DNA of 57,365 nt. It comes from Bacillota bacterium. GTDB lineage: Bacteria; Bacillota; Clostridia; Saccharofermentanales; UBA5734. Shown one piece after another: positions 6,610 through 48,363 of this stretch. Below the pieces are notes generated by a model. It was not told the DNA's origin and ran no database searches. It worked only from the letters and a program-made list of their open reading frames with translations. Numbering within the stretch: the first letter of the stretch is position 1; the number at the start of each line of letters is the position of its first letter. The stretch is taken from contig JAKPNJ010000156.1 of assembly GCA_029548445.1 (NCBI GenBank), positions 1-57,365 of the forward strand, read 5' to 3'. The position numbers and the translations under genes are program-made.

Positions 6610-6666
6610 CACAAGAAAATCCGTTCCGTCCGAAAAGGGACGGGATCGGGACAAGCGTGTGACGGA

Positions 6667-6699: not shown

Positions 6700-6716
6700 T
6701 CCGGAACGGAGGCTCC

Positions 6717-9362: not shown

Positions 9363-9396
9363 CACCGAACAGCCTGTCGACACCGAACGGCCTGCG
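9361..9396. repeat. 18-bp tandem direct repeat (2 copies plus a degenerate third)
   Basis: GACACCGAACAGCCTGTC / GACACCGAACGGCCTGCG / GACGCCGG..., lying between the GH94-like stop and the AraC-family gene. Confidence 0.8.
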
Positions 9397-9435
9397 GACG
9401 CCGGTCATTGGCGGCGCCCGGCTTCGGATGGTACA

Positions 9436-10395: not shown

Positions 10396-10535
10396 CCCCT
10401 CCGGCCACCGACAGCGGATATGTGCACCTTCCTCGGGGAAACATCCTATCGACCCCGTGGGGTTCCATGCTAGCCTGAAATCGCGCAGGTCCGGGGCATT
10501 CTACGGAATCGGCCTGTGGCGGAGGGAAACCCGGC

Positions 10536-18499: not shown

Positions 18500-18546
18500 C
18501 CCGGTATCCGGATCCATTCATCATGATGGGAAGGGAGAATTCCGGC

Positions 18547-19908
18547 ATGCCGACGACCCATGACCCTCGCCCCAACCTGGTATTTATCCTCACGGACGAC
18601 CAGCGGTTCGACGCCCTGGGCTGCGCGGGGAATCCCATCATCCAAACCCCGCACCTGGATGCCCTGGCGGCATCGGGCACCCGCTTCACCAACGCCTTCG
18701 CGACGACGCCCATCTGCGCCGCCAGCCGGGCCAGCCTCTTCACGGGACTGTACGAACGGACCCACCGGATGACCTTCGGAACGCCCCCCCTGGCGGACCG
18801 GTTCGTCGACATGAGCTATCCCGTCCTGCTCCGGGAAGCGGGGTATCGAACCGGATTTTCCGGCAAGTTCGGCATCAGCGTTCATCCCGGCGCAGAGGAC
18901 CGGATGTTCGACGATTTCGTGCCCATGACCCAGCCGCCCTACTTCCAGCCCGGGCCGGACGGCCGGATGCGGCACCTGACGGATCTCGAGGGGGACGCCG
19001 CCCTGGCGTTCCTCGATACGGTGCCGGCAGGCACGCCTTTCTGCCTGTCCCTCAGTTTCAACGCCCCCCATGCCGATGACCAGGACCCGCTCCAGTATTT
19101 CTGGCAGGCCGAGTGCGACGGGCTGTACGAAGAGGACACGATTCCCGTCCCGGCCACCATGACGGACGACATTTTTCTGGCCCAGCCGGACTTCCTCCGG
19201 AACTCGGAAAGCCGGGTGCGGTTCAACTGGCGGTTCGACGAGCCCGAAAAGTACCAGCGGATGGTCAAGGGGTACTACCGGATGATCACGGGGATCGACC
19301 GGGTCGTGGGCCGGATCCGGCAGGACCTGGACCGGCGGGGCCTTGCGGAGAATACGGTGATCGTCTTCATGTCGGACAATGGCTACTTCCTGGGGGAACG
19401 GGGATTTGCGGACAAGTGGTACATGTACGAGTACTCGCTCCGGGTCCCGCTGATCGTCTGCGACCCACGGATCCATAACCAGCCGGCAACGGTGGACGCC
19501 ATGGCGCTGAATGTCGATATCGCCGCCACCCTGCTTGATTTCGCCGGGGTCGGGCCGGCCCCCCTGCAGCAGGGGAGGAGCCTGGTTCCCCTAATCCGGG
19601 GCCGCGATGCCGGCGGCTTCCGGGAGGACTTCCTCTGCGAGCACCTGTTCGAGCACCCCGGAATCCCGAAAAGCGAGGGAGTCCGGACCGGGCGGATGAC
19701 CTACTTCCGCTGGATCGGCCAGGACCACGACGCGGAGGAGCTCTACGACCATGTCGCCGACTTCGACGAGATCCGGAACCTGGTGGGAGACCCCGGCTGC
19801 CGGGAGGCGAAGGCGACGCTTCTGCGCCGGATGGAAACGCTGCTGGAGCAATGCGGCCGGGCACGGGACGAGGCGCTGTCGGCCGATCGGCGCATCCCGC
19901 CGGACTGA
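18547..19908 (+). CDS. S1-family (formylglycine-dependent) sulfatase, no signal peptide
   Basis: LVFILTDDQRFDALG ... TPICAASRASLFTGLY (C-x-A-x-R formylglycine motif). SD GGGAAGGGAGAA lies before ATG 18547. The track ORF 16741..19908 is the same frame with a spurious upstream extension across the GH78 gene. Confidence 0.9.
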   Translation: MPTTHDPRPNLVFILTDDQRFDALGCAGNPIIQTPHLDALAASGTRFTNAFATTPICAASRASLFTGLYERTHRMTFGTPPLADRFVDMSYPVLLREAGYRTGFSGKFGISVHPGAEDRMFDDFVPMTQPPYFQPGPDGRMRHLTDLEGDAALAFLDTVPAGTPFCLSLSFNAPHADDQDPLQYFWQAECDGLYEEDTIPVPATMTDDIFLAQPDFLRNSESRVRFNWRFDEPEKYQRMVKGYYRMITGIDRVVGRIRQDLDRRGLAENTVIVFMSDNGYFLGERGFADKWYMYEYSLRVPLIVCDPRIHNQPATVDAMALNVDIAATLLDFAGVGPAPLQQGRSLVPLIRGRDAGGFREDFLCEHLFEHPGIPKSEGVRTGRMTYFRWIGQDHDAEELYDHVADFDEIRNLVGDPGCREAKATLLRRMETLLEQCGRARDEALSADRRIPPD

Positions 19909-19974
19909 CCGCAGCGGCGGGGAACGCGTCCCGGAAGCATGGGCGAGAATGTCCGGAATCGCGCCGGATTCATC

Positions 19975-20005
19975 CTGACATCCGGCCAGTCCCGGGTGAT
20001 AGTAT
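19975..20005 (+). promoter_or_regulatory. promoter candidate (cTGACAt - about 18 nt - TGaTAGTAT)
   Basis: The -35-like CTGACA is at 19975-19980 and the extended -10 TG-a-TAGTAT at 19997-20005. The -10 overlaps ATG 20004. If the promoter is real, the binding-protein gene starts further downstream (TTG 20082 after GGGGAGAGAGGGAG). Confidence 0.3.
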
Positions 20006-23000
20006 GAAGGTGTTTCATGTGCAATTCCGCCATCGGCAAACGAGGGCGGGACGACGCCGAATCATCGGGGAGAGAGGGAGCTTGACCAGACGCAACGGGA
20101 TCCTGGCCGCCAGGCGATTCGCCGCCATTCTCTGCCTGCTGGCCCTGTGCCCCGCCATCGGGGGACAGGGGGTCCGGGCGGTGTCGGCTGACGCCAGGCT
20201 GCGGGACAAGCTGGACCTCCGGGAGGACGCGGGAGATACGGGCTTCTCCCAGCTGGTCCGGGATTTCGTCGACTACGCGCAGCTGCAGGCGCGGTACGCG
20301 GAACTCGGTCTCCAGGCGCCGGACGTCCCGCCCCTGGTCCTGCCGGTCCGGGACGCGGTCCGCTCGAACGGCGACCCGGCGGACCCGGTCGCGGGGTATG
20401 CCGGACGGACCGGCGACGTCCTGCTGTGGGACGACGGGGAGCCTTCCTACGAGTGGTCGTTCCTGGTTTCGGAAGAAGGGCTGTATGAGATCGAGGTCGA
20501 GTATTACCCGCTGCCGGACGCGGTGACGGACATCCAGCGCAGCCTGTACATCGACGGCGAGAACCCGTGCCGGCAGGCCAACAACGTCTTTTTCAACCGG
20601 AACTGGGTCGAAACCGGCGACATCCTGACAACCCCCGATGGCGACCAGAAGGCTCCGAGGCTGAAGCAGGCCCCGGCCTGGTCCGCAACGCGGATCCGGG
20701 ATTCGGTGGGGATGTACCCGGACGCCCTGCAGTTCCATTTCAGCAAGGGCCGGCATACGGTCCGGCTGGGATACGTCAATTCGCCCCTGGCCATCGCAGG
20801 GGTCCGGATCCTGCCCGCTTCCTCCCCGCCTTCCTATGCCGAGGTGGAAGCCGGCTGGGGAGGGGATGCGGTCCCGTATGACGGCGCTCCCCTTGTCCTG
20901 CAGGCCGAGGAAGCCGCGTTCCGCTCCCACCGGATCCTCCGGCGGATCTATGATTCGGATCCGGGCACCACGCCGTCTCCCCGGGGCAATGTGGTCATGA
21001 ACGCCATCGGGGGAGGGCGCTGGAACACCGGCAACCAGGAAATCGCCTGGACGGTGGATGTTCCCGAGGACGGCCTGTATCGCCTCGGGTTCCGGGTCCG
21101 CCAGGGATTCAGCCTGGGCATCAGCGTCCACCGCCGGATCGAGATCGACGGGGGGGTGCCCTATGCGGAACTGCTGGCCTACCCGTTCGAGTACGATGAC
21201 CAGTGGAGAACCCGGGAGCTCCTGGCACCCGACGGAAGTCCCATGCTGGTTCGTCTCGACAAGGGGACCCATACGATTTCCATGAGCGTCGTGACCGGGC
21301 AGCTGACTCCCCTGATCAACGAGCTGGAAGACATGAACTTCCTGCTGTCGGACATCCTCCAGGACATCACGACCGTGACCAGCACGGTCCCCGACCCCAA
21401 TTTCGACTATCGCCTGGACAAAACCATTCCCTGGATCATCGACGACCTGAAGGCCCTCTCTGCCAGGCTCAAGGCCCAGGCCGACTATGTCGACGCCATC
21501 AGTTCGCGGCGCCCCCCCGTGGCCAACACCCTGGCGTCCACCGCCGCCGAAGTGGACGGACTCGTCCGGTCCCCGTCCAGGATCCCGGCGAAGCTGAACG
21601 ACATGTTCAGCATGCAGACGACGCTTTCGTCCTGGTTTACCGAGCTTCGAAACCAGCCGCTGTCCATGGATTACCTGGTCCTGGCCCCCGCCGGCCGAAG
21701 CCCCGCGGACCCGAGGACGAGCCTGGGGCAGAAGCTGCTGGCGACCCTCCGGAATTTCCTCCAGTCCTTTACCAAGGATTATTATCGGATCGACTCGTCC
21801 CGGCCGGACGACCCGGGGGACCGGGACGTCCTCGAGGTCTGGGTCTCCCGGGCCAAGGAGTGGGCGGAGCTGCTCCAGCAACTGGTGGACGAGGACTTCA
21901 CGCGGGACACGGGGATCCTGGTCGATGTCAACATGCTGCCCCCCGCGTCCACCGGTGCCGCGGCCACCAGTCCCCTGATGCTGTCCGTCATTTCCGGGAA
22001 GGCTCCCGACGTGGCGCTGGGCAGCGACGGCGGCGCCCCGGTCGAGTACGCCATCCGCCAGTCGACGGTGGACCTGTCCGCTTTCGACGATTTCGAGGAG
22101 GTCAGCGCCCGGTTCCTCCCTGGTGCCATGATCCCCCTGGGCTTCCGCGGAGGCGTCTACGCCCTCCCGGAAACCATGGACTTCCCGCTGCTCTTCTACA
22201 GGAGTGATATTGTCTCGCGGCTGGGGATCGAGCTGCCGGATACCTGGGAGGACGTGTTCCGCAAGACGCTGCCCAGCCTCCGGCAGAACGGCACCCAGAT
22301 GTTCATGCGGATCGGGTTCGACGCCTTCCTGTTCCAGAACGGCGGGCAGCATTACCGGGACAACGGGACCCGCTCCGCCCTGGACTCGGAGGCCGCCTAC
22401 AAGTCCTTTGTCCAGTGGACGGACGCCTATGTCGTCTACCGGATGGAACTCGCCGCCGACCTCCTGAACCACTTCCGGATCGGGAGCATCCCCATCGCCA
22501 TCGGCACCATGGGCGACTACATCACGATCTCCCGGGCCGCTCCCCAGATTTACGGCCGGTGGAGCATCCGCCCGATTCCCGGGACCCTGCGGCCGGACGG
22601 GACCATCGACCGGACGGCCGGCGGCGGCATCAGCACCGCCATGATCATGGCCCAGACCGGGATGGCGGAGGAAGCCTGGGCATTCCTGAAATGGTGGACG
22701 TCGGCGGAGACCCAGGTCATGTTCGGGTCGGAGATCGAGGCCATCGTCGGTCCGGAGGCCCGATGGCTCAGCGCGAACCTGGAGGCCTTCCGCAAGATCG
22801 GCTGGAATCCCGACCACCTGGCCGTCATGGAGGAATCCTGGAAGTGGTTCCGGAACCCGCAGAATGTGCTGGGCGGGTACTTCACGGGGCGGCACCTGCT
22901 GAATGCGTGGACCCGGGTCGTGCTGGGCAACAGCAAGGCGCGGGATTCCCTGGAGGTCGCCATCGAGGCGATCAACCGGGAACTGGATCGGAAGAACGAG

Positions 23001-23030
23001 GAGTACCGGGACATTTACGGCCTGGGTTGA
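20004..23030 (+). CDS. very large extracellular solute-binding protein (ABC, CUT1-type) with N-terminal CBM-like beta-sandwich modules
   Basis: About 1008 aa from ATG 20004. The alternative TTG 20082 gives a clean signal peptide, RRNGILAARRFAAILCLLALCPAIGG. Two similar modules are present (LYEIEVEYYPL...RLGYVNSPLAIAGVRILP and LYRLGFRVRQG...KGTHTISMSV). The C-terminal half has the family-1 sugar-binding protein pattern (LEVWVSRAKEW..., PETMDFPLLFYR, WTSAETQ). Confidence 0.75.
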   Translation: MKVFHVQFRHRQTRAGRRRIIGERGSLTRRNGILAARRFAAILCLLALCPAIGGQGVRAVSADARLRDKLDLREDAGDTGFSQLVRDFVDYAQLQARYAELGLQAPDVPPLVLPVRDAVRSNGDPADPVAGYAGRTGDVLLWDDGEPSYEWSFLVSEEGLYEIEVEYYPLPDAVTDIQRSLYIDGENPCRQANNVFFNRNWVETGDILTTPDGDQKAPRLKQAPAWSATRIRDSVGMYPDALQFHFSKGRHTVRLGYVNSPLAIAGVRILPASSPPSYAEVEAGWGGDAVPYDGAPLVLQAEEAAFRSHRILRRIYDSDPGTTPSPRGNVVMNAIGGGRWNTGNQEIAWTVDVPEDGLYRLGFRVRQGFSLGISVHRRIEIDGGVPYAELLAYPFEYDDQWRTRELLAPDGSPMLVRLDKGTHTISMSVVTGQLTPLINELEDMNFLLSDILQDITTVTSTVPDPNFDYRLDKTIPWIIDDLKALSARLKAQADYVDAISSRRPPVANTLASTAAEVDGLVRSPSRIPAKLNDMFSMQTTLSSWFTELRNQPLSMDYLVLAPAGRSPADPRTSLGQKLLATLRNFLQSFTKDYYRIDSSRPDDPGDRDVLEVWVSRAKEWAELLQQLVDEDFTRDTGILVDVNMLPPASTGAAATSPLMLSVISGKAPDVALGSDGGAPVEYAIRQSTVDLSAFDDFEEVSARFLPGAMIPLGFRGGVYALPETMDFPLLFYRSDIVSRLGIELPDTWEDVFRKTLPSLRQNGTQMFMRIGFDAFLFQNGGQHYRDNGTRSALDSEAAYKSFVQWTDAYVVYRMELAADLLNHFRIGSIPIAIGTMGDYITISRAAPQIYGRWSIRPIPGTLRPDGTIDRTAGGGISTAMIMAQTGMAEEAWAFLKWWTSAETQVMFGSEIEAIVGPEARWLSANLEAFRKIGWNPDHLAVMEESWKWFRNPQNVLGGYFTGRHLLNAWTRVVLGNSKARDSLEVAIEAINRELDRKNEEYRDIYGLG

Positions 23031-23056
23031 CGGGCCTGAACCCGGAAGGGGAACGG

Positions 23057-23986
23057 ATGGGAAACGGAACCGGAATGGAAATGGATCGAGTCCGCAGCCA
23101 CGTCCGCATGCAGCGATACAGGATGTACGCGGCGGGCTATGCCATGATCGCCCCGTTTTTCGTCCTCTTCCTCCTGTTCAACGTGCTGCCGATCCTCTGG
23201 GGGTTCATTCTGAGCTTTACCCACTACAACATCATCCAGCCCATGCGGTTCGCCGGCCTGACCAACTACATCGAGCTCCTGACCAATGACGACCTCTTCA
23301 TGGTCGCCTTCCGCAATACCTTTACCTTCGCCATGATTTCCGGTCCCATCGGGTTCATGTCCTCCTTCTTCTTCGCCTGGATCATCAACCAGCTTCGCTT
23401 CCGCAACGCCTTCTCCCTGGCCTTCTATGCGCCCTCCATCGCCAGCGGCACGGCCATCGGCGTCGTCTGGCTCGTCATGTTCTCCCCCGACCGCCTGGGG
23501 ATCATCAACAACGTCCTCCTGCGGCTTGGCGTGATCAACGACCCGATCCGATGGACCATCGACCCGGTCTACATCCTGCCCCTGATCATCCTGATTTCCA
23601 TCTGGATGAGCCTCGGCGCCGGCTTCCTGACCAACCTGGCAGGCCTCAACAACATCCCGTACCACCTGTACGAGGCCGGCCGGATCGACGGCATCCGGAA
23701 CCGGTTCCAGGAACTCGTGTTCATTACCCTCCCCCAGATGAAGCCCTACCTGCTGTTCTCCGCCATCATGTCCACCGTCAGTGCCCTGAACGTCGGGGCC
23801 ATGGCCGCCCAGGTGGCAGGCTTCCCGAGCCCCGACTACGCGGCCCACACCATCGTGCTGCACATGCAGGACCACGGCTTCCTGCGGTTCGAGCTGGGCT
23901 ACGCGTCCGCCATCGCCTTCATCCTGTTCCTGTTCAACTTTTCTCTCGGCCGGATTTTCATGAAGATGCTGTCGTCCAACGACTGA
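23057..23986 (+). CDS. carbohydrate ABC transporter permease (pair A, subunit 1)
   Basis: 309 aa, 6 TM pattern, EAA loop YEAGRIDGIRNRFQELVFITLPQM. Confidence 0.9.
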   Translation: MGNGTGMEMDRVRSHVRMQRYRMYAAGYAMIAPFFVLFLLFNVLPILWGFILSFTHYNIIQPMRFAGLTNYIELLTNDDLFMVAFRNTFTFAMISGPIGFMSSFFFAWIINQLRFRNAFSLAFYAPSIASGTAIGVVWLVMFSPDRLGIINNVLLRLGVINDPIRWTIDPVYILPLIILISIWMSLGAGFLTNLAGLNNIPYHLYEAGRIDGIRNRFQELVFITLPQMKPYLLFSAIMSTVSALNVGAMAAQVAGFPSPDYAAHTIVLHMQDHGFLRFELGYASAIAFILFLFNFSLGRIFMKMLSSND

Positions 23987-24003
23987 CACGGAGGAAACCG
24001 GAT

Positions 24004-24876
24004 ATGCGACTGGCCCGTTCACGGGAAGGCATCGGCAACAGGATCACCACGGGGTGGGTCGTTACGTATGCGTTGATGATTCTTCTGGTGGCGTTTACCT
24101 CCCTGCCCCTGGTTTACCTCCTGGTGTCGGCATTCAAGCCCCTGGACGAACTGGTCCTCTATCCCCCCCGGTTCTTTGTCCGGCGGCCTACCGTCGAGGG
24201 ATTCCTGGACCTCTTTACGGCGCTGGACAGCCAGGAGATTCCCTTTACCCGGTATCTTTTCAACAGCCTGTTCACCACCTCCGCCAATGTGCTGCTGATC
24301 GTCCTGATCTCGACCATGGGGGCCTACGGCCTGGACAAGATCAAGCTGCCCGGCGGCCGGGCCCTGTTCCGGATCGTGATCCTGGGCCTCATGTTCTCGC
24401 CTCCCGCAGCCCAGATCCCCATTTACATGGCCATCAACTCCCTGGGCATCCTGGACACCTATTGGGCGCTGATCATCCCGAAGCTGGCGACACCCATGTT
24501 CTTTTTCCTGCTGAAGCAGTTCATGTCCCAGGTTCCCCTGGAAATGGTCGAATCTGCCCGAATGGACGGCGCCGGTGAATTTGGCGTGTATCGGCGCATC
24601 GTCCTGCCGATGATCAAGCCGGCCATCGCGACCGTGGTCGTCTTCGCGTTCATCGACAACTGGAACGACGCCGGACCCTCCACCATCTACATCACCCGGC
24701 AGGCCATGCGGACCTTGCCGTTCGCCCTGGGAACCATATTCTCCGGGGGAGTCATCGCCCGCCTGGCCGCCCAGAATGCCGCCGCCCTGCTGACGATCCT
24801 CCCGACGATCCTCCTGTACCTTGTCATGCAGTCGAAGGTCATCCGAACCATGGCCTATTCCGGCCTGAAGGGCTGA
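24004..24876 (+). CDS. carbohydrate ABC transporter permease (pair A, subunit 2)
   Basis: 290 aa. SD GGAGGAAA before ATG 24004. EAA loop VESARMDGAGEFGVYRRIVLPMIKP. Confidence 0.9.
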   Translation: MRLARSREGIGNRITTGWVVTYALMILLVAFTSLPLVYLLVSAFKPLDELVLYPPRFFVRRPTVEGFLDLFTALDSQEIPFTRYLFNSLFTTSANVLLIVLISTMGAYGLDKIKLPGGRALFRIVILGLMFSPPAAQIPIYMAINSLGILDTYWALIIPKLATPMFFFLLKQFMSQVPLEMVESARMDGAGEFGVYRRIVLPMIKPAIATVVVFAFIDNWNDAGPSTIYITRQAMRTLPFALGTIFSGGVIARLAAQNAAALLTILPTILLYLVMQSKVIRTMAYSGLKG

Positions 24877-24887
24877 CGGAGGAACGC

Positions 24888-26339
24888 ATGGCGATGGGCA
24901 AAACCGTCTCCAGCCTGGCCGCGATGGCGATCGTGTTCTCCTGCCTGCTGGCGGCAGGCGGGCAGGTGTCGGCCTATGAAGACTACAATTACATCCTCGA
25001 TCCGGCCACCGGCCGCAGGATCCCCATGGCCACCGCGTACCAGTCGGCAGGGGTTCGGATCTATTTCGGAGAGGCCACCGGGCCGCTGTCCAATCCCCGG
25101 CACCTGTTCATCGACGGGCAGGACAACCTGTATATTCTCGATACCGGCAACAACCGGATCCTGAAGTTTGACAGGAACTGGAACCTCCTGATGTCGGCCG
25201 GCCCGGACACGGACCTGGGCCTGGATGCCCCCCAGGGCCTGTATGTCGACGAAGACGGCCACCTCTTCATTGCGGATACGGAAAACGGCCGCATCGTCCA
25301 TGCCTCCCCGGAAGGCGCCTTCATCGAGGCCTTCGTGGAGCCCCAGGACAGCCGCTGGAGCCGGGACTACCCGTTCCGTCCCGTGAAGGTGTACCTGGAT
25401 CCCATCGGGCAGATCGTGATGATCAACATGGAGGATTACCACGGATTTGCGATCCTGGACGCGTTCAACAAGTTCAAGGGGTACATCGCGCCGACCCGGC
25501 TCCCCTACAGCTTCGTCGACCGGATCCGGGAGTTCTTCATGACCCCGGAGCAGAAGGAACGCTTCGGCCTTCGGCTCCCGCCGATCCATTCGAACATGGT
25601 GATCGACGCCAAGGGCTCGATCCATACGACCACCATCCGCACCACCGCCCAGCAATACAAGCAGTTTTCCAACATCGGCGTCAATCTCTATCCCTACCAG
25701 GGCGCGTTCGGGGAGTCAGCGGGAGACTACACCCTGGTCCGGTACGGCAAGGATGTGGTCGATCCCCAGTTCGTCGACCTGGCGCTGGATCGCGAGGGCA
25801 TCGTCTACCTGCTGGACAACACCTCCGGCAGGATCTACCAGCATGACCAGGACGGCATGCTCCTGTCCGTGTTCGGCGGGACGGGCCGGTACGCCGGCCG
25901 GTTCATTGACGCCGTTTCCATCGACGCCGACAGCCGGGGGAACCTGTATGTGCTGGACGCGAATTCCGGCTCCGTCCATATGTTCCAACCCACCGCCTTT
26001 ATCCGGAAAGTCAAGGAGGCCCTTCGGCTGTACTACAACGGCGAATACGAGGCGTCGGTCGGGCCCTGGCGCGAGATTCTCGACATCGATTCCGGGTATG
26101 TCGTGGCCCACCTCGGGATGGGGAAGGCCTACATGAAACAGCGCGAGTGGCGCAGTGCCATGGACGAATACCGGGCCGCCGGCGACAGGACGGGGTATTC
26201 GCTGGCCTTTACCGAGCTCCGGAAGGACCTGTTCCGCCGCTATTTCGGCCTGGTCATTCTCGCGGCCGGCCTGGCCCTCTTCGGCCTGGTCCGGCTGCTC
26301 ATCGCTCTCAGGAAAAAACAGGCGGCGCTTTCCATCTAG
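24888..26339 (+). CDS. secreted NHL-repeat beta-propeller protein with TPR-like segment and C-terminal TM anchor
   Basis: Signal peptide MAMGKTVSSLAAMAIVFSCLLAAGGQVSA. NHL-type blades (LFIDGQDNLYILDTGNNRILKF, GLYVDEDGHLFIADTENGRIVH, GIVYLLDNTSGRIYQH, GNLYVLDANSGSVHMF). A TPR-like helix pair (GMGKAYMKQREWRSAMDEYRAA). Terminal TM helix FGLVILAAGLALFGLVRLLIAL. Confidence 0.7.
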   Translation: MAMGKTVSSLAAMAIVFSCLLAAGGQVSAYEDYNYILDPATGRRIPMATAYQSAGVRIYFGEATGPLSNPRHLFIDGQDNLYILDTGNNRILKFDRNWNLLMSAGPDTDLGLDAPQGLYVDEDGHLFIADTENGRIVHASPEGAFIEAFVEPQDSRWSRDYPFRPVKVYLDPIGQIVMINMEDYHGFAILDAFNKFKGYIAPTRLPYSFVDRIREFFMTPEQKERFGLRLPPIHSNMVIDAKGSIHTTTIRTTAQQYKQFSNIGVNLYPYQGAFGESAGDYTLVRYGKDVVDPQFVDLALDREGIVYLLDNTSGRIYQHDQDGMLLSVFGGTGRYAGRFIDAVSIDADSRGNLYVLDANSGSVHMFQPTAFIRKVKEALRLYYNGEYEASVGPWREILDIDSGYVVAHLGMGKAYMKQREWRSAMDEYRAAGDRTGYSLAFTELRKDLFRRYFGLVILAAGLALFGLVRLLIALRKKQAALSI

Positions 26340-26362
26340 CCGATGCCGGCCGGAGGTTCTGG

Positions 26363-27004
26363 ATGAATCCCTACCATATCGCCCTGACGGTCCTGTTCGA
26401 GCCCATGTACGCGTTCCCGCTGATCAAGCGGGACCGGCGCCGGTTCAGCCATCTCGTGAACTTCGCGCTGCTGTTCCTGGTCGTCGCCGTCCGGGTCGCC
26501 TCGATCCTCATCACGCACTATCCGATCTCCGCCGTCGATCCCCAGCAGACCAACATCGGCCGGGAAGTCCTCAACATGATCGTGCCGATCCTGACCTGGT
26601 CCGTCGGCTGCTATCTCGTGACCACCATCCACAGCGGGGAGTCCCTCTCCCGGGAAGTCCTCCAGGGTGTGGCTTTCGCCATGCTGCCCTACATCCTCCT
26701 GACCCTTCCCATCGCCCTGGTGTCGAATCTTTTCTCCCGGACGGATGTCGCCCTCCTGTCGGTTACATTCATCGACCTGGCCACCGGTTTCGTCTGGGCG
26801 TGGGTGATCGTGCTCCAGCTGATCGCCCTGGGCCAGATGAATTCCTACGGGTTCCTGGAGACCCTGGGCGTGGCCCTGGTCAGCCTGTTCACCTGCGTGT
26901 TCCTCTGGGCCGTGCTGGTGCTCGTGTACGTTCTCGGAAGCAATGTGACGGACTTCCTGTTCACGGTGTTCGAGGAGTACCGGCTCTTCTTCTTTGGGGC
27001 ATGA
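26363..27004 (+). CDS. Yip1-family polytopic membrane protein
   Basis: 213 aa. SD GGAGG before ATG 26363. About five TM helices after a short cytoplasmic N-terminus (LIKRDRRRFSH). Architecture and size fit bacterial Yip1-domain proteins. Confidence 0.6.
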   Translation: MNPYHIALTVLFEPMYAFPLIKRDRRRFSHLVNFALLFLVVAVRVASILITHYPISAVDPQQTNIGREVLNMIVPILTWSVGCYLVTTIHSGESLSREVLQGVAFAMLPYILLTLPIALVSNLFSRTDVALLSVTFIDLATGFVWAWVIVLQLIALGQMNSYGFLETLGVALVSLFTCVFLWAVLVLVYVLGSNVTDFLFTVFEEYRLFFFGA

Positions 27005-27051
27005 TCCGGTCCGGGATGGGTCTTGCCTTGGAAAGGCGGGAAAGGAGTCCG

Positions 27052-29748
27052 ATGCGAAACCACCTCGTGTTCCCGATCCTGGCGGCGGTGCTGGCCGTTT
27101 CCCTGCTGGCGGCCTGCAGCGCCGCAGGACCCGTCCCCGACGGCGAGGATGGGGAGTATCCCCATGAGATCGAGTACGGGGCGTTTTCCGCGGACCTGCC
27201 CACCCTGTCGTCCCCGGATGCCGTTGTCCTGCCGGACTACGAACTGGTCGCGGACAACGGGCAGCTCCAGCTCTATTACCAGGCCTACAATACGGCCGAA
27301 AGCCGGGTCGAGTCCGCCATCGCGGTCCGGGACCGGAGAAGCGGACAGGTCTGGTATTCCAGCGTACCGGAAGAGACGTTCTCGGGGGAAGCCCGGGCCG
27401 GTACCTCGCAGCACATCCGCAATTCCATGCGGTCCATGGTGCTCCTGGACTACATCCTCGTATCCAGGGACAATCTTGACGTCAAGACCGACGCCCTGAT
27501 GACCTTCGAGCCCGCGGTTTCCTACCAGCCCGTCCAGGACGGACTGCGGATCCTGTACGAAATGGAAGCCATCGGCGTCCACCTGGTTCTCGAGGTCCGG
27601 ATCGAGGACGACGGGCTGGTGGTCACGGTCCCGCACACGATGATCCGCCAGGAGGTCGGCGCCCGGGATTTCCTGGAGAAGAACCTGGCGTCGATCCTGG
27701 ACTACACGGACCAGGTGGCGGACATGCTGGCGGACTTCCGGTCCGAGCCTTCCCTGCGGGGCGCGGGGTACCGGAGACGGCTATCCGATATCCAGCGGGC
27801 CAATACGCAGCTTGCGACCCTGGCTGCCTCGATCCGGGGACCGACGGGCATATCCGCCATTGCCGATACATTCCGCCAGCTGCTGGTCGAGGCCCTGACG
27901 CTCCTGCGCGGCGGCGTCGGGATGACGGGGTTGAACCAACTCGTCGCCACCGACCGGCGGGTGGACGACGACGTGAAGAAGCGGGTCGCCGATCGCCTGG
28001 AAGACATACACCGGGCGTACCAGAAGGCGAACCTGACGGCCGCGAAGCTGAAGACCTACGAACTGGGTTCGGTCACGGGCCTGCAGGTCCTGCCCTTTTT
28101 TGGAGCGGCCACGGATGCCGAAGACGGGTATGTTTTCTATCCGGACGGATCCGGCGCCATCTCCCGCTTCCGGAAGGACCGCCCGACGGTCTGGAATGAC
28201 GCCTTCAGCGGCCATGTCTATTCGGAGACCTTCGAGCGGAGAACCGTCGATATCGACTGGGAGCGGATCCGCGACCGGGCGGGAATGGGCCGGATCTTCC
28301 TCCCGGTGTATGGCATCCGGAAGGGGATGGATGCCTTCCTGGCCGTCGTGACGCAAGGGGACGCCATTTCAACCATCAACTACCAGCCCAGCGGCTATCT
28401 CGTCGCATTGAACCGGGCCTTCGCCGGCTTTGAAATCCGAAACATCATCGAGTCGGCCGGCACCTCCGGCCTCGCAGGAAGGCGGTTCGAACGGACCAAT
28501 ATCCCGACGGACCTGCAGGTCCGGTTCCTGTTCCTGGACAGGGCGTCAGCGGATTACAGCGGCATGGCGGTCCGGTACCGGACCCACCTCCTGGAGACCG
28601 GCGGACTCGCGGAACCCGATCCCCTGGTCGGGGAGGCGCCCATTACCCTGGACCTGCTGATGGGCATCCGGGAACGGCGGCTCCTGTCCGACCCCTTCAT
28701 TGCCATGACAACCTTCGACCAGGCAGCGGAGCTCCTGGAGTCCCTGCATGACCAGGGAGCAGGCCCCCTCCTGGTCAACCTTCACGGTTGGACGGAGGAG
28801 GGATACGACCGGTATCCTGCCGACAGTTCCCCGGCCAGGGCCCTCGGCGGCGCCCGGGGGCTCCGGAGGCTTTCGGACACGGCGGAGAGAACGGGAGCCA
28901 GGCTGTACCTGCAGGACAACTACCTCGAGGTGTACAGCCGGATTGGCCGGTACCGGCAGGGGGACCTGGCCATGGGATCCGACGGGCGCGACCACCGGAA
29001 CCGGTCCGGCAGCATCTACCTGTTTTCGCCCGCCGTGATCCTGGATCGGTTCCAGCGGGGGATCCTGCCCAGGCTCCGGGACACCGGCGCGGACGGGGTC
29101 ACCTTCGACCGGCTGGGCACCCTCCTGTACCTGGACTACAGGGATGGCCGCGCGTTCCAGAAGGCGGATGCCGCCGATGCCTTCTCGCGGATGCTCTCCG
29201 CCTCCGGCGAGGCCATGGGGTCCTCCGCCACCATCGGCGGCAACGCGTACGTCCTGCCCCATGTCGACTGGATCATGGGCGCACCGGTGGGAGCCACCAA
29301 TTACCTGTACGCCGACGAGGAAATCCCTTTCTACCAGATGGTCATCCATGGGCATGTGACCTATTCGTCCAGCCTGTACAACCAGTTTTTCGACCGGGAA
29401 CTCCAGACCCTCCAGATGATCGAGTACGGCACCAGCCCCTTCTTCCGGCTCACCTGGGCTGCCACGTCGGAACTGAAAAACACAGGGTACGACCTGCTTT
29501 TCTCCTCCGAGATCGGGAAGTGGCAGGACGACATCGTCGCGGTGGCCGACGCCATGCGGAGCGGCCCCGGCGCGCTGGCGGGGGTCCGGATGGTCCATCA
29601 CGAACGGGTGGGACGGGACCAGGTCGTGGTTCGGTATGAAAACGGGACGAAGGTCCTGATCAACTACGGCAGCGAGTCGGCGGTGGTGGACGGCGTGACC
29701 GTCGGGGCCATGTCGTACGGCCTGGTCCAGGGAGGGGACGGAACATGA
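27052..29748 (+). CDS. large DUF5696-like lipoprotein (candidate cryptic glycoside hydrolase)
   Basis: About 898 aa. SD AAAGGAG before ATG 27052. Lipobox LLAAC. An N-terminal beta-rich part, a helical/coiled segment (about 27640-28080), and a C-terminal part with TIM-barrel-GH-like strings (LLVNLHGWTEEGYDRYPA, DTGADGVTFDRLG). The stop overlaps the next start (ATGA 29745-29748). Family name is from memory only. Confidence 0.55.
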   Translation: MRNHLVFPILAAVLAVSLLAACSAAGPVPDGEDGEYPHEIEYGAFSADLPTLSSPDAVVLPDYELVADNGQLQLYYQAYNTAESRVESAIAVRDRRSGQVWYSSVPEETFSGEARAGTSQHIRNSMRSMVLLDYILVSRDNLDVKTDALMTFEPAVSYQPVQDGLRILYEMEAIGVHLVLEVRIEDDGLVVTVPHTMIRQEVGARDFLEKNLASILDYTDQVADMLADFRSEPSLRGAGYRRRLSDIQRANTQLATLAASIRGPTGISAIADTFRQLLVEALTLLRGGVGMTGLNQLVATDRRVDDDVKKRVADRLEDIHRAYQKANLTAAKLKTYELGSVTGLQVLPFFGAATDAEDGYVFYPDGSGAISRFRKDRPTVWNDAFSGHVYSETFERRTVDIDWERIRDRAGMGRIFLPVYGIRKGMDAFLAVVTQGDAISTINYQPSGYLVALNRAFAGFEIRNIIESAGTSGLAGRRFERTNIPTDLQVRFLFLDRASADYSGMAVRYRTHLLETGGLAEPDPLVGEAPITLDLLMGIRERRLLSDPFIAMTTFDQAAELLESLHDQGAGPLLVNLHGWTEEGYDRYPADSSPARALGGARGLRRLSDTAERTGARLYLQDNYLEVYSRIGRYRQGDLAMGSDGRDHRNRSGSIYLFSPAVILDRFQRGILPRLRDTGADGVTFDRLGTLLYLDYRDGRAFQKADAADAFSRMLSASGEAMGSSATIGGNAYVLPHVDWIMGAPVGATNYLYADEEIPFYQMVIHGHVTYSSSLYNQFFDRELQTLQMIEYGTSPFFRLTWAATSELKNTGYDLLFSSEIGKWQDDIVAVADAMRSGPGALAGVRMVHHERVGRDQVVVRYENGTKVLINYGSESAVVDGVTVGAMSYGLVQGGDGT

Positions 29749-30662
29749 AAAGAAGGCGTCGTTTCATGACGATCCAGCGGCGGGACATCCTGTCCGGCTT
29801 CCTGTTCACGAGCCCCTGGTTCATCGGGTTTTTCCTGTTTTTCTTCTATCCGCTGTCCCAGTCCATCCGGCTGGCCTTCTCGAACATCACCGACATCACG
29901 GAGTTCCGCATGGCCTGGACGGGGTTTGACAATTTCGCCAACGCCTTCGCCCGGGACATCCAGTTCTTTCCGCTGCTGCTGGATTCCGTCGGCAACATGC
30001 TGGCCAATACACCCATCGTCGTGGTCTTCTCCCTGTTCATCGCCATCCTGCTGAACCGGGAGATCCGGGGGAAGGGGCTTTTCCGCGTCGCCTTCCTCCT
30101 GCCCGTCCTCCTGGGCACCGGCATCGTCATGCAGACGATCCGGGGCAATTACGGCGTTGTCGACATCAGCTCGCAGATGGGCAGCGCCTCGACGGGTCCT
30201 GGTGGAGCGGAACTGGGCGAGATCGGCATCAACCATTATCTCGTGACCCTGATCGGTCCCGTGGCCGCCGGGTATCTCCAGGCCGTCCTGCGGAAGGTGT
30301 CCGAGATCCTCTGGATGTCCGGCATCCAGATCATCCTGCTGCTGGGATCCCTCCAGACGATTCCCACGCCATATTACGAGGCGGCGCTCTGCGACGGCGC
30401 CAGCGAGTGGGAGAAGTTCTGGAAGGTCACGCTGCCCCTGACCATGCCCACCATCCTCCTCGTGACCGTCTATACCGTCATCGATTCCTTTACCAGTGCG
30501 GACAACGGGGTCATCCGGTATATCACCGGCGTTTCGTTCGCCAATTTCAACCTGGCCTATGGCAGCGCCCTCAGCTGGATGTATTTCCTTCTCGTGGGCA
30601 TCGTCATCCTGGCGGTCTTTGCCATCATGCGGCGCAGGGTGTTCTACATGGGGGAGAAATAG
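29745..30662 (+). CDS. carbohydrate ABC transporter permease (pair B, subunit 1)
   Basis: 305 aa. EAA loop YEAALCDGASEWEKFWKVTLPLTMP. Confidence 0.9.
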   Translation: MKRRRRFMTIQRRDILSGFLFTSPWFIGFFLFFFYPLSQSIRLAFSNITDITEFRMAWTGFDNFANAFARDIQFFPLLLDSVGNMLANTPIVVVFSLFIAILLNREIRGKGLFRVAFLLPVLLGTGIVMQTIRGNYGVVDISSQMGSASTGPGGAELGEIGINHYLVTLIGPVAAGYLQAVLRKVSEILWMSGIQIILLLGSLQTIPTPYYEAALCDGASEWEKFWKVTLPLTMPTILLVTVYTVIDSFTSADNGVIRYITGVSFANFNLAYGSALSWMYFLLVGIVILAVFAIMRRRVFYMGEK

Positions 30663-30664
30663 CG

Positions 30665-31660
30665 ATGGAAATGCGCAAGAACGGATCACCGGGGTCGGGA
30701 AGGGGCGGATGGACCGCAGCCCTGGCGAACCGTGTCCGGGCCGGCGACCTGCAGGAATCAGCCCTGTATGTCGCGGCCAGGAAACGGGTGTCCCGGCTCC
30801 TGGTCAACGCCCTGGTCTATGCCCTGCTGGTGGAGTTCGTATTCGTGTTCGTCTTCCCCTACCTGTACATGGTCATCAACTCCCTGAAGTACGACTTCGA
30901 CATCCGGAGCGCCAATACCCAGTGGATCATCACGCGTTTCAATTTCTACAATTACTCCCAGGCCATCAGCGACCTGCGGTATGTCGAGGGGCTCCTGAAC
31001 AACCTGATGGCGGCTTTCGGGAGCACCCTCGGCCACGTGGCGTCGGCTTCGCTCATCGCGTACGGACTGGCCCGATTCCGTTTCCCGGGGCGGAACCTGG
31101 TGTTTTCCATCGTGATCCTGACCCTGATCATCCCGCCCAACCTGCTGCTGATTCCCATGTACATCCAGTTCGCCCGGATGGGGCAGGCCCTGGGCACAAG
31201 CCTGATCGGCACCCTCTGGCCGATCCTCCTGCCGACGTTTTTCGGATTCGGCCTCAAGGGGGGTCTGTTCATCTTCATCTTCCGCCAGTATTTCAAGGGT
31301 CTCCCCGCATCCTACGAGGAGGCGGCCAAGATCGAAGGGTGCGGCCCGCTCCGGATCTTCCTGACGATCATCCTCCCCCTGTCGAAGACCGGCGTCCTCG
31401 TGGTGGCGATACTTTCCACCATGTGGCACTGGAACGACTACTTCGAACCGATCATCTACCTCAAGGGGCCGTCGACCCTCCTGTTCCAGCGCATCGTCAA
31501 TATCCAGGTGTGGCGGGGCGTCTACACGGCGGCGGGGAATTACATCAATCCCGTGGTCCTGGCCGCCTGCGTCCTCATCACCGCCCCCCTCCTCCTGATC
31601 TATTTCGTGTTCCAGAAGCAGTTCATGAAGGGCATCGAGTTCACCGGCCTGGCCAACTGA
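30665..31660 (+). CDS. carbohydrate ABC transporter permease (pair B, subunit 2)
   Basis: 331 aa. ATG 30665 is 2 nt after the upstream stop. EAA loop EEAAKIEGCGPLRIFLTIILPLSK. Confidence 0.9.
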   Translation: MEMRKNGSPGSGRGGWTAALANRVRAGDLQESALYVAARKRVSRLLVNALVYALLVEFVFVFVFPYLYMVINSLKYDFDIRSANTQWIITRFNFYNYSQAISDLRYVEGLLNNLMAAFGSTLGHVASASLIAYGLARFRFPGRNLVFSIVILTLIIPPNLLLIPMYIQFARMGQALGTSLIGTLWPILLPTFFGFGLKGGLFIFIFRQYFKGLPASYEEAAKIEGCGPLRIFLTIILPLSKTGVLVVAILSTMWHWNDYFEPIIYLKGPSTLLFQRIVNIQVWRGVYTAAGNYINPVVLAACVLITAPLLLIYFVFQKQFMKGIEFTGLAN

Positions 31661-34178: not shown

Positions 34179-34214
34179 GAAGCCCGGCGGGAATCCGGCC
34201 GGCAAGGAGAGAGG

Positions 34215-36854: not shown

Positions 36855-36987
36855 GGCGGATTCGTCCATGTCGGTTGTGCAATCATCCTATCTGCCATGG
36901 AGGGAGGGATGCTATCATGCACCTGTCAGGCGAAAGCGGTTCCGTCCTGGCGCCCGTTCGTCCCACAGATCGAAAGGGGGATTCCCA

Positions 36988-38442: not shown

Positions 38443-38476
38443 TCCGTCCGCAGGCCTGGACGGACCCCCCGGGCCC

Positions 38477-38514
38477 CTGCCCCCCGGAGAGAAGTATCCG
38501 GGGGGCAGCTTTTC
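38477..38514 (+). terminator. Rho-independent terminator-like hairpin between the two binding-protein genes
   Basis: CTGCCCCCCGG - agagaagtat - CCGGGGGGCAG followed by CTTTTCC. Confidence 0.5.
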
Positions 38515-38562
38515 CTCCGGTTCGTCCGCAACCCGCCCAACTGTGCGCAAGGAGGATTCCCT

Positions 38563-40005: not shown

Positions 40006-40026
40006 TCCGCGGGCAAAGGAGACCGT

Positions 40027-42036: not shown

Positions 42037-42059
42037 GGGGCCAAGATAGGAGATCGACA

Positions 42060-43967
42060 ATGAGAACCTGGATCCGGGATCGGGAAGACGACGGCAGCGT
42101 GCATGCGATCGGCAACGGGGAGATGCTTGTGTACGGGCAGGGCATCGACATCATGCACGTCTTCGGCCCGCCGTACAGCGCCCCGTCCTTCTTCCGCCTG
42201 GATCTCCGGCGGGAGGACGACATGACCGCCATCACGTCGGAACGGGAGCGACACACGGCCATCTGGACCCACCGGGTCCATGCCGACGACCGGGTCCTGG
42301 CCTCCGTGACGGACTTCATGATGCCCGACCGAAACCTCTTTTGTCGGGAGATCGAAACGGAGGGCACCCTCCGGTTTCGGCTCGCGCCCGGTTCCGAGGT
42401 GAATGCCTTTCTCCGCAAGGGGTACGGGACCTCTTCCGGGAAGGCCGTCGACATGCTCCACCTGTCCATCCCCAAGGGATCGACCTTTTTCTTCCGCAAT
42501 CCGGTTCCGGAGGAAACCAGCCTGCTGGCGGCCGTCGTTGGCGATGCCGTCCTGGCGGCCGACCCCGATGGAACCCTCCGCCTGGACTGCCTTCCCGGCA
42601 GGACCCGGATGTTTTTCTGCGGACATGGTGCCCATCCCGAGGCCGTCCGCCTGCTCGAGGACACCCTGTCGAACCCGGAGGAGGATCGGATCGGCCCCTG
42701 CCGGCGCTTCTGGCAGGCCTTCAGCCGACGCCGGCATGACTTCGCCTCCATGATCCCGGAGGGCCATCCCCTGGGCGCCCGGATGCAAGACGCCATCGAC
42801 AGCGTCTCCGTCCTGATGAAGTGCCAGCAATCGACCTCCGGCGGGGTTGCCGCGGGCCACTTCTACAATATGGCCTATGTCCGGGACATGTCGGGGGTCC
42901 TCCGGGGATTCCTGGCCCTCGGATACCTGCCGGAGGCCCGGGCGATCCTGGAATTCTGGATTCGGAAACACGCGGCTTTCGGCAACCTCAGCAATGCGGA
43001 AGGCATGGGCAACGACAGCGCCCGGCTGGTCTTTACGAATGACGAGGTGGAGGGCCCCGCCTACCTGGTCCTGTTGGTGTTCCATTATTACGAGAGGACC
43101 CGGGACCTGGACCTTGTCCGGAGGGCCTTCCCCATGATGGCCTGGGCCTTCGAGATCCAGCTGGGCCACCTGGCGGCCGGCATGACCGAATTCAGCGGTG
43201 ACGAGACCTATATCGCCGGCGGAGCGCTGACGGGCGCCTGCATGTACCAGGGGTCCGCCGAATCCACCCTCCTGTTCATCGAGAGCGGCCGGAGGCTGCT
43301 GCAGTGGGCGGAGGCACAGGCCCAGTGGGATCCGGCAAAAATCGGGCGGTACAGGCAGGTTGTCGCGGATGCGGAAAGCCGATACAGGCACAATTTTGTG
43401 GCCGACGGCCGGCTCCTGGCCAACAATCCGCTCCGGGAGCAGGTTGCGGGAGCGCCTCGTTTCCGGTTTTCCTTCTGCATGGCCCACGAGCCCGGCCAGC
43501 CGACGCCGCCCATGACCTGGACGGAGCGGAGGCCGGATGGCAGCTATGTGTGCGCGGACTGCGCGGGGAAAGCGTCACGGGCCCCGGCCGCGCCCGCGGC
43601 GGGCGTCGTCCTGAATTCGGTCAGCTTCATGCCGGCGTTTGTCGGCTGCAGCTTTCTATCCAGGGATGAGATGGCTGGCTTCATTGAGCCGGGGGTACAG
43701 GCGTTCCTGGAGACAGGCCGTATGCCTTCCTGCCTGTCCGGCCGCCGGTCCCTTGGATACGATTACGGACTTCTGCTGCACAACCTGGTCTTTTTCGGCC
43801 ATCCGGCCAGGGAGAAGGCCGTGGTGGCCATGCTGGACCTTCTCGATCCGACGGGCTCCTGGGTCGAGTACTATGACGGGGACAAACCCTTCAACTGTCG
43901 GTGCAGGCCCTGGGAGAGCGGGATCAACATCGAGGCCCTGGCGGGGTATATAAGGAGCCTGTCATGA
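42060..43967 (+). CDS. uncharacterised (alpha/alpha)6 six-hairpin glycosidase-like protein
   Basis: About 635 aa. SD AGGAG 7 nt before ATG 42060. GHFYNMAYVRDMSGVLRGFLALGY resembles the Y..W.RD helix motif of GH15-type six-hairpin enzymes. No signal peptide. The stop overlaps the sulfatase start. Confidence 0.5.
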   Translation: MRTWIRDREDDGSVHAIGNGEMLVYGQGIDIMHVFGPPYSAPSFFRLDLRREDDMTAITSERERHTAIWTHRVHADDRVLASVTDFMMPDRNLFCREIETEGTLRFRLAPGSEVNAFLRKGYGTSSGKAVDMLHLSIPKGSTFFFRNPVPEETSLLAAVVGDAVLAADPDGTLRLDCLPGRTRMFFCGHGAHPEAVRLLEDTLSNPEEDRIGPCRRFWQAFSRRRHDFASMIPEGHPLGARMQDAIDSVSVLMKCQQSTSGGVAAGHFYNMAYVRDMSGVLRGFLALGYLPEARAILEFWIRKHAAFGNLSNAEGMGNDSARLVFTNDEVEGPAYLVLLVFHYYERTRDLDLVRRAFPMMAWAFEIQLGHLAAGMTEFSGDETYIAGGALTGACMYQGSAESTLLFIESGRRLLQWAEAQAQWDPAKIGRYRQVVADAESRYRHNFVADGRLLANNPLREQVAGAPRFRFSFCMAHEPGQPTPPMTWTERRPDGSYVCADCAGKASRAPAAPAAGVVLNSVSFMPAFVGCSFLSRDEMAGFIEPGVQAFLETGRMPSCLSGRRSLGYDYGLLLHNLVFFGHPAREKAVVAMLDLLDPTGSWVEYYDGDKPFNCRCRPWESGINIEALAGYIRSLS

Positions 43968-48092: not shown

Positions 48093-48363
48093 GCATGAAC
48101 AAGCATTTGACCCGGTATTTTCACGCGAAACCCCTGTTTTTTCGGCCAGGACCGGCGTATACTTCTATCAGAACCCAAAGCGATAAGGGCAAACCCGTCG
48201 AAAGGCGGGGGCGCAAAGCTACAGGGCCTTCCGGCGAAAGCCGATGGCAGCCAGTTGCCGAATCTTGTGTTCTTCTTGTTTAAGGAGGGAGAGGGACATT
48301 CGGATCGCTTCAGGGCGACACGCTCGAACGGCCTGTGGGCCGTACAGGAAAAGAGGTGCGCTG

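Follow-up and report, generated by a model that had tools for sequence, protein, structure and literature searches.

A stretch of 57,365 nucleotides from a Bacillota bacterium (assembly GCA_029548445.1, contig JAKPNJ010000156.1), referred to here as the window, carries on its forward strand eight adjacent genes for a giant solute-binding protein (SBP), two pairs of ATP-binding cassette (ABC) permeases, A and B, and, between the pairs, an NHL/TPR protein, a Yip1-family membrane protein and a lipoprotein of the DUF5696 family. The same cassette, in the same order and orientation, is present in 64 of the 67 related loci that have enough DNA on both sides. It is read here as probably a system for surface capture and trimming of glycans that feeds two CUT1-type ABC importers in monoderm bacteria (Bacillota and some Chloroflexota), a reading that is favoured because DUF5696 has a glycosidase fold and because one giant SBP is fused to a glycoside hydrolase (GH) of family GH10. 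A glycan capture and processing platform had been proposed in the original prediction, which was made from the DNA letters; the fold and the fusion lend it support, and the function itself we infer.

The transporter parts are ordinary CUT1 components. The accessory apparatus is conserved and undescribed, and it probably includes a new GH family.

Conservation and organisation of the cassette

The DUF5696 protein of the window has no close relative, its nearest being 29-34% identical. A pattern scan with a homologue alignment, counting one genome per species, found at least 566 genomes with a DUF5696 relative. The best 80 of these loci (numbered L001 onwards) were taken with 10-kb flanks, and their six-frame open reading frames (ORFs) were searched with the eight window proteins. 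They originate from Paenibacillus (28), Cohnella (7), Bacillus, Fictibacillus and two metagenome-assembled genomes (MAGs) of Chloroflexota, along with many Clostridia, Lachnospiraceae and Oscillospiraceae MAGs. DUF5696 is followed immediately by the permease pair B (PermB1 and PermB2; 78 of 78 loci) and preceded immediately by the NHL gene (72 of 72), and an orthologue of PermA1, the first permease of pair A, occupies the same position in 64 of 67. Because this order recurs in dozens of Bacillota species and a few Chloroflexota at 22-36% DUF5696 identity, the arrangement is far beyond chance. The most distant relatives examined, P0037 (720 aa) and P0043 (1415 aa, 22% identity) in the loci L081 and L082, are encoded within the same cassette, and so is the homologue of Mahella australiensis 50-1 BON, whose genome is complete (CP002360.1; L084). 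In every related locus examined, DUF5696 is embedded in the cassette or in a half form of it. The family itself is large, with 4271 clusters at 50% identity reaching E ≤ 1e-30 in an exhaustive profile search.

The linkage of the accessory genes to ABC transporters, which had been expected to be conserved, is thus borne out by synteny, and the original statement that such neighbourhoods occur in Paenibacillus and Clostridia proved sound, as both are among the loci found. The description of the system as uncharacterised also stands, since the literature searched yielded no publication on DUF5696, PF18952 or this gene combination.

Beyond the eight genes, an ordinary SBP belongs to the cassette. 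Proteins of this kind, about 470 aa in length, form a BLAST cluster of 47 from 43 loci; 32 of them immediately precede the giant SBP, and 8 immediately follow PermB2. When the cassette-adjacent members from these 43 loci were made into a profile, it matched exactly two window ORFs, which stand in tandem at 36988-40005 (153 and 133 bits). The first of these (36988-38442) also matches, at 178 bits, the SBP that immediately precedes the cassette in L001, the closest relative locus. The ordinary SBP is thus the ninth cassette member, absent from the original parts list of eight. The SBP at 36988-38442 is the probable partner of permease pair B, displaced downstream by the GH39-like and GH78 genes, which have been inserted between PermB2 and the tandem SBPs. 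The two tandem proteins have near-identical signal peptides (MKLRKLAAL... and MNLRKLAAL...).

The cassette is composed of two sub-modules, A (giant SBP and permease pair A) and B (ordinary SBP, NHL-Yip1, DUF5696 and permease pair B). This division follows from L083, where the order is permuted (SBP, NHL-Yip1, DUF5696, PermB1, PermB2, giant SBP, PermA1, PermA2), and from L030, L068 and L073, where half-cassettes of NHL-Yip1, DUF5696 and the PermB pair occur without sub-module A; L053 likewise lacks sub-module A, with too little upstream contig to exclude its presence. The accessory block is therefore not wedged between permeases, as first described, but forms part of one of two separable and swappable sub-modules. 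In L030 and L073 the half-cassette has NHL and Yip1 fused. Immediately ahead of it in L030 (647-13579), a Pfam scan of the neighbours identified two ABC ATPases, with an HlyD fusion protein and an FtsX permease of 1058 aa between them, and in L073 BLAST clustering picked up a homologue of this large FtsX permease. This exporter set recalls the Yip1-containing YknWXYZ system.

The genes that surround the cassette vary between loci, and are mostly carbohydrate-active enzymes (CAZymes) and regulators of the LacI or AraC type. Co-directional downstream genes in 61 loci represent 101 Pfam families. GH26 is found in 15 Paenibacillaceae loci, together with GH113 and GH2 β-mannosidase, and the polysaccharide lyase family PL11, a rhamnogalacturonan lyase, in four Lachnospiraceae loci. 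Other flanks include GH10 with GH3 in L083, GH38 in Mahella and GH130 in L053 and L081. In L001, a DUF5695 protein (PF18951; 14183-17536, 1118 aa) is encoded directly downstream of the cassette and is followed by GH127; DUF5695 is an uncharacterised family whose Pfam number is adjacent to that of DUF5696.

Structure and predicted roles of the encoded proteins

The DUF5696 protein matches PF18952 with 477 bits (E=1.2e-142; cut-off 25.6 bits) over 574 of the 612 profile positions. It bears a lipoprotein signal with the lipobox LAAC, and a hydrophobic N-terminal segment, be it a lipoprotein signal, signal peptide or anchor, is present in 32 of 33 homologues. In its AlphaFold2 (AF2) model, with a predicted local distance difference test score (pLDDT) of 81 and a predicted template modelling score (pTM) of 0.81, an N-terminal β-sandwich with a helical insertion precedes a (β/α)8 barrel and a C-terminal β-sandwich. 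A Foldseek search of the PDB places first the GH129-like 3,6-anhydro-D-galactosidase DagB (5opq; E=9e-29) and second the GH129 α-N-acetylgalactosaminidase NagBb (5wzn; E=1e-23), with template modelling scores (TM-scores, by target) of 0.71 and 0.73, respectively, followed by GH101, GH31 and GH36 members. The model thus shares the three-domain fold of GH129, and the original impression that none of the three middle proteins offered a clue to function no longer applies to this one.

The significant sequence matches to these relatives are short (5wzn, E=8e-8; 8rzg, 1e-8), covering 80-140 residues only, and that to 5wzn is confined to residues 568-648 in the 915-aa coordinates obtained when the gene is read from ATG 27001. 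Identity to GH129 relatives in structural alignments is 11-13%, the full-length DUF5696 profile aligns to GH129 only as far as α2 of the barrel, and similarity to GH129 across the catalytic domain was not found by sequence. Because the fold agrees whereas the sequence does not, and the catalytic residues remain unaligned, DUF5696 should not be filed under GH129; it has a Pfam family of its own. It differs from GH129 further in being membrane-tethered and always beside permeases, and in the helical insertion that the window copy and some homologues possess.

Conservation among 113 homologues is complete for D365 and N777 (both 100%) and high for E791 (96%), R704 (93%), and N731 and Y733 (90%), with D695 at 86% and D755 at 83%. 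D365 lies in the N-domain motif GYxxxPDGSG, which is invariant. DagB, which its authors proposed as the founder of a separate family, requires Asp202 from the N-terminal domain of its partner monomer in addition to Asp486 and Glu517 (PMC5698469), and by analogy the invariant N-domain Asp of DUF5696 fits this pattern. The protein is predicted as likely to be catalytically competent, and is most likely a retaining glycosidase that belongs to a new family with GH129 and GH101 as its relatives.

The insertion in the N-terminal β-sandwich comprises four helices in approximately 130 residues (204-336; window 27661-28059). It is found in part of the family only: many homologues align just from residue 340 on, and the 720-aa class appears to lack it, judged by length. 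The insertion and the helix bundle of the giant SBP described below were compared as possible homologous docking modules and rejected as such (hhalign probability 0.2%).

The NHL protein scores 51.9 bits against PF01436 (cut-off 20). Its best PDB matches are the "Pizza" propellers derived from PknD (E=3e-30) and PknD itself (1rwi; 1e-13), and six matched stretches align to the designed seven-bladed NHL propeller 3wwa (E=3e-30). Hydropathy places hydrophobic segments at residues 7-25 (signal peptide) and 455-473. The protein is thus predicted to be an extracytoplasmic six-bladed β-propeller, followed by a TPR region and a C-terminal transmembrane helix. Its neighbour, with five transmembrane helices by hydropathy, scores 20.4 bits against Yip1 (PF04893), under the cut-off of 28.6; the label is kept because all 48 of the orthologues scanned from related loci match the profile (best E=1e-19), and the protein is counted as a Yip1-family member.

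A single ORF of approximately 690-850 aa, with an NHL propeller, TPR and transmembrane helix followed by the Yip1 domain, encodes both proteins together in 27 of the 80 loci and again in L081, L082 and L083; the window has the split form. On this Rosetta-stone evidence they are best taken as one functional protein of which Yip1 would be the membrane half, and not as the separate parts of the original account. As in PknD, a six-bladed NHL propeller is situated outside the membrane and anchored by a transmembrane helix, but the PknD propeller is coupled to a Ser/Thr kinase, while that of the cassette continues into TPR and Yip1 with no signalling output. For Yip1, a precedent as an ABC transporter accessory is found in Bacillus, where YknW, a member of the Yip1 family, influences how the YknXYZ transporter complex is assembled (PMC4887032). 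The half-cassettes of L030 and L073, as noted, adjoin a gene for a MacB-type permease. In contrast to the cassette, YknWXYZ, in which YknYZ is the MacB-type ABC exporter and YknX the fusion protein, exports a peptide toxin, YknW has no NHL propeller, and neither an SBP nor BPD_transp_1 permeases are present.

The giant SBP contains an SBP_bac_1 match at residues 621-904 (62 bits). It had been described as a protein of about 1008 aa; the gene is real, but its true start is probably TTG 20082, giving 982 aa, and not ATG 20004. The TTG is preferred because it is preceded by a strong ribosome-binding site (RBS), GGAGAGAGGGAG, and is also the start of P0044 in the protein collection, whereas the ATG lacks an RBS and lies right against a promoter-like -10 box. 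The exact product of 20082-23030 is on record as P0044 with two member sequences and a longest contig of 40,998 bp, so the same organism or a near-identical strain has been assembled elsewhere too. The AF2 model (pLDDT 86.6) consists of an N-terminal signal or anchor, two β-sandwiches (85-245 and 271-404), a four-helix bundle (406-523) and a MalE-type SBP (527-982). Foldseek relates it to the oligosaccharide SBPs 5ysb, 3uor and 3k01 with TM-scores of 0.7-0.8 (up to 0.82). A hydrophobic N-terminal segment is present in 34 of 36 homologues.

The tandem β-sandwiches are seen as an internal repeat in the family consensus. Golvesin_C reaches only 17.7 bits in the window protein; of 36 homologues, 22 match Golvesin_C and 9 match CBM_35 in these sandwiches. 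That they resemble carbohydrate-binding modules (CBMs) of families 6 and 35 is therefore supported weakly here and more clearly across the family and by the model, and the earlier term "CBM-bearing" is to be read with the same reserve. One homologue of 1524 aa (L083, 10001-14575) carries a GH10 xylanase and F5/8C domains ahead of the SBP and sits in a GH3/GH10 locus. No other single observation argues as strongly as this fusion that the giant SBP uses its N-terminal part to handle a polymeric substrate at the cell surface.

Both permease pairs consist of two BPD_transp_1 proteins with EAA loops, as is characteristic of CUT1 transporters (Pfam and NCBIfam). In the translations these loops read EAGRIDG...LP in PermA1, ESARMDG...LP in PermA2, EAALCDG...LP in PermB1 and EEAAKIEG...LP in PermB2. 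The pairs are distant paralogues, PermB1 being 26% identical to PermA1 and PermB2 25% identical to PermA2. For PermA1, which like Yip1 scores below its Pfam cut-off, the label is kept because of a UgpA-type match at E=1e-16; every gene label is supported by Pfam and NCBIfam together. SBP_bac_1 proteins are encoded in the cluster, as in CUT1 systems (62 bits for the giant SBP, 73 and 83 bits for the ordinary ones). A nucleotide-binding subunit is not: no gene with a Walker A or LSGGQ motif is present in the whole 57-kb window, in agreement with the first reading, and no ATPase was found in the cassette region of the related loci, searched with the eight window proteins, or among the called genes of L081-L084. 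CUT1 systems commonly share an MsmK-type ATPase encoded elsewhere, and such an ATPase is assumed for the cassette.

Proposed mechanism and competing explanations

The cassette resembles CUT1 importers of the MalEFG/UgpABE type, with SBPs such as CbpB and Lin1841 (for β-1,2-gluco-oligosaccharides), in combining a MalE-fold SBP with two EAA permeases for each transporter. As in other Gram-positive CUT1 loci, the ATPase is not in the locus, and LacI/AraC regulators and CAZymes stand alongside. It departs from them in having two permease pairs, one SBP with approximately 500 extra residues, and three obligatory non-transporter proteins (NHL, Yip1 and DUF5696) encoded between the pairs.

In the proposed mechanism, the tandem CBM6/35-like β-sandwiches of the giant SBP would hold polysaccharide at the membrane surface, its MalE-type domain would pass oligosaccharides to permease pair A, and the membrane-tethered DUF5696 would trim or debranch the captured glycan beside the transporter. 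Two sizes or kinds of product could enter through the two permease pairs, with energy presumably supplied by the shared ATPase. Substrate specificity would differ between cassette lineages, and the window copy presumably serves the rhamnosidase and sulfatase locus that surrounds it. The Yip1 membrane domain may dock the NHL propeller, and probably DUF5696 too, onto the permeases, a role proposed because YknW, the sole precedent, acts on transporter assembly. A more demanding form of the model, in which an NHL-Yip1 scaffold holds DUF5696 glycosidases and the CBM-bearing SBP on the two translocators as an assembled surface machine that binds, cuts and imports, is put forward only tentatively. 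Gene order and content, membrane topology, the folds, the fusions and the conservation are observations, and the substrate, catalysis by DUF5696, the matching of SBPs to permease pairs and a physical complex are predictions.

Several points weigh against capture and trimming by a catalytic DUF5696. The candidate barrel acids D695 and D755 are not invariant, none of the DUF5696 acids can be aligned by sequence to the catalytic Asp and Glu of GH129 (D435/E478 in NagBb; D486/E517 plus D202 in DagB), and a profile of the barrel half (residues 610-830) retrieved no GH from the PDB, only spurious matches. There is also no evident reason for a single conserved glycosidase-like protein to be used in loci for glycans as unlike as β-mannan, xylan, rhamnogalacturonan I and sulfated rhamnose-rich polymers. 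The cassette of L082 has no CAZyme neighbours and lies among housekeeping genes (NifU, cysteinyl-tRNA synthetase, GtrA-like), and the half-cassettes of L030 and L073 follow a MacB-type exporter gene. The assignment of each SBP to a permease pair is drawn from gene order alone. In addition, the 80 best-scoring loci lean to the branch of the query, two distant members having been checked separately.

Some of these points are shared with an explanation that is unlikely but deserves the most attention, namely that the cassette is a glycan-import unit in which DUF5696 and NHL-Yip1 form a non-catalytic scaffold, lid or gate, DUF5696 being a dead glycosidase fold retained as a binding module. Absence of the candidate barrel acids from approximately 15-25% of aligned homologues, the company of chemically unrelated glycans, and a barrel half with no sequence match to any solved GH would all be expected of such a protein. 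However, the polar residues of the catalytic face are well kept (D365 and N777 at 100%; N731, Y733 and R704 at ≥90%), as is the full three-domain GH129 architecture, and, since polyspecificity is common among GH families, a variety of glycans does not speak against catalysis.

A role of the cassette in turning over or recycling glycopolymers from the cell's own envelope or matrix, and not in feeding on an external polysaccharide, is improbable. The setting of L082 would suit this role, and glycoconjugates are the substrates of the fold relatives GH129 and GH101, but most loci are flanked by CAZymes for plant or algal glycans and by sugar-responsive LacI/AraC regulators, and the giant SBP has CBM6/35-like domains and, once, a GH10 xylanase. 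It is highly improbable that the accessory proteins are a sensor in which the NHL propeller and the helix bundle of the giant SBP detect glycan and regulate the importers or expression. The NHL domain is indeed closest to the extracellular sensor of PknD and its designed derivatives, and the four-helix bundle stands between the CBM-like and SBP parts, but Pfam and NCBIfam identified no kinase, HTH, GGDEF or other output domain in the cassette accessory proteins, the regulators belong to the usual LacI, AraC or GntR types and differ from locus to locus, and the tight coupling is to permeases. Chance adjacency of two independent importers and unrelated genes can be given almost no weight, for although co-location alone is no proof of interaction, synteny already contradicts it, with 64 of 67 loci, from two phyla and at 22-36% identity, keeping the order, NHL and Yip1 fused in many loci, and the DUF5696 stop overlapping the PermB1 start in the window.

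Capture and trimming in front of two importers thus remains the preferred reading, and it bears comparison with the starch utilisation system (Sus) of Bacteroidota. The functional analogy originally drawn with Sus holds for the logic, in that a cassette of surface binder, surface enzyme and transporter recurs beside different sets of CAZymes. It does not extend to the parts, as no component is homologous: Sus is built around an outer-membrane TonB-dependent transporter, the cassette around an ABC importer of the cytoplasmic membrane in cells with no outer membrane, and no SusC or SusD domain was found in the window genes scanned. How Gram-positive degraders keep large glycans on their surface and feed them to ABC importers is far less understood than the Sus paradigm. 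The cassette is common; its bearers include Paenibacillaceae from soil, Lachnospiraceae and Oscillospiraceae from the gut, thermophilic Clostridia and some Chloroflexota. It adjoins loci for mannan, xylan, pectin and, in the window, what appears to be a sulfated rhamnose-rich glycan. If the reading is correct, DUF5696 would constitute a new GH family, bacterial Yip1 and NHL proteins would be assigned a role, the cassette would serve as a genomic marker of polysaccharide loci in monoderms, and a testable mechanism would be available for efficient glycan capture by gut Firmicutes. Were the assembled machine also to exist, binding, cutting and import of polysaccharide would leave little for competitors, a Gram-positive counterpart of "selfish" Sus uptake made of wholly different parts and reused for many glycans. 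Cultured hosts include Mahella australiensis, Paenibacillus amylolyticus, P. lautus, P. pabuli and several Cohnella species.

Gene calls and surroundings in the window

With a G+C content (GC) of approximately 65%, the window contains long ORFs in all six frames, and genes were called by frame analysis of codon-position GC (GC3), translation and inspection of start sites. Codon-position GC resolves a single coherent series of genes on the forward strand. Antisense ORFs of 1050-1395 aa over real genes, at 19743-22895 (1050 aa), 12739-16926 and 31845-36026, all on the reverse strand, were rejected because the same measure marks them as artefacts of the high GC. The positions of the cassette genes and their neighbours are collected in Table 1.

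Table 1. Features of the cassette and its surroundings in the window.
Feature	Position	Strand	Evidence and remarks
DUF2961 protein		-	upstream
GH94-like protein		+	upstream
AraC regulator		+	upstream
GH116		+	upstream
GH106		+	upstream
GH78 rhamnosidase		+	upstream
Sulfatase	18547..19908	+	upstream; motif CAASR
Promoter-like site CTGACA-17-GATAGT	19975..20003	+	consensus scan, 9/12 matches; in 95-nt gap after sulfatase gene
Giant SBP	20004..23030	+	1008 aa from ATG; Pfam SBP_bac_1 62 bits
PermA1 (MalF/UgpA-type)	23057..23986	+	BPD_transp_1 20.4 bits; NCBIfam UgpA E=1e-16
PermA2 (MalG/UgpE-type)	24004..24876	+	BPD_transp_1 46.9 bits; GlcU/UgpE E=1e-25
NHL/TPR protein, 483 aa	24888..26339	+	Pfam NHL 52 bits, SGL 27.6, weak TPR_11
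Yip1-family protein, 213 aa	26363..27004	+	Pfam Yip1 20.4 bits; five transmembrane segments
DUF5696 lipoprotein, 898 aa	27052..29748	+	PF18952 477 bits; RBS AAGGAG 5 nt upstream
PermB1	29745..30662	+	BPD_transp_1 32.6 bits
PermB2	30665..31660	+	BPD_transp_1 56.4 bits; UgpE E=8e-26
GH39-like protein		+	downstream
Second GH78		+	downstream
Ordinary lipoprotein SBP, 484 aa	36988..38442	+	SBP_bac_1 72.8 bits; lipobox AASC
Second ordinary lipoprotein SBP, 480 aa	38563..40005	+	tandem paralogue; SBP_bac_1 83 bits; lipobox AAAC
GH141		+	downstream
644-aa protein		+	downstream
Second sulfatase	43901..45286	+	downstream
RsgI-like anti-sigma factor	48244..49470		downstream; RsgI_M 80 bits

The gaps between the eight genes are, in order, 26, 17, 11, 23, 47, -4 and 2 nt. 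The original layout of tightly packed forward-strand genes separated by 2-47 nt or overlapping is reproduced almost to the base, including the ATGA at 29745 in which the DUF5696 stop and PermB1 start overlap, the gap of -4. A terminator scan found none between genes within the cassette, every match lying inside coding sequence. The promoter-like site ahead of the giant SBP gene is weak evidence only, as the number of such sites in the region equals that expected from shuffling.

The cassette lies inside a glycan locus of approximately 40 kb (4404-19908 and 31689-45286), all on the forward strand except the DUF2961 gene. Because rhamnosidases (GH78, GH106) and sulfatases flank the cassette, the gene content suggests that the locus serves a sulfated, rhamnose-rich substrate, for which ulvan, polymers resembling rhamnan sulfate, or material resembling rhamnogalacturonan II are candidates; it also suggests a host of the Clostridia type. 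These flanking genes (rhamnosidases, sulfatases, GH39, GH141) were considered as travelling companions of the cassette and rejected, as only AraC-type regulators and SBPs recur beside it. The ORFs at 5671-6609, 42033-43967, 45426-47024 (-) and 49648-51048 (-) are supported by codon-position GC and have no Pfam match; one of their products, the protein of 644 aa encoded after GH141 and before the second sulfatase, is also without an NCBIfam match. Further downstream, in the region 47274-49470, an ORF of 242 aa without a Pfam match stands ahead of the gene for the RsgI-like anti-sigma factor and could encode the sigma factor of a polysaccharide-sensing pair in the style of Clostridia.

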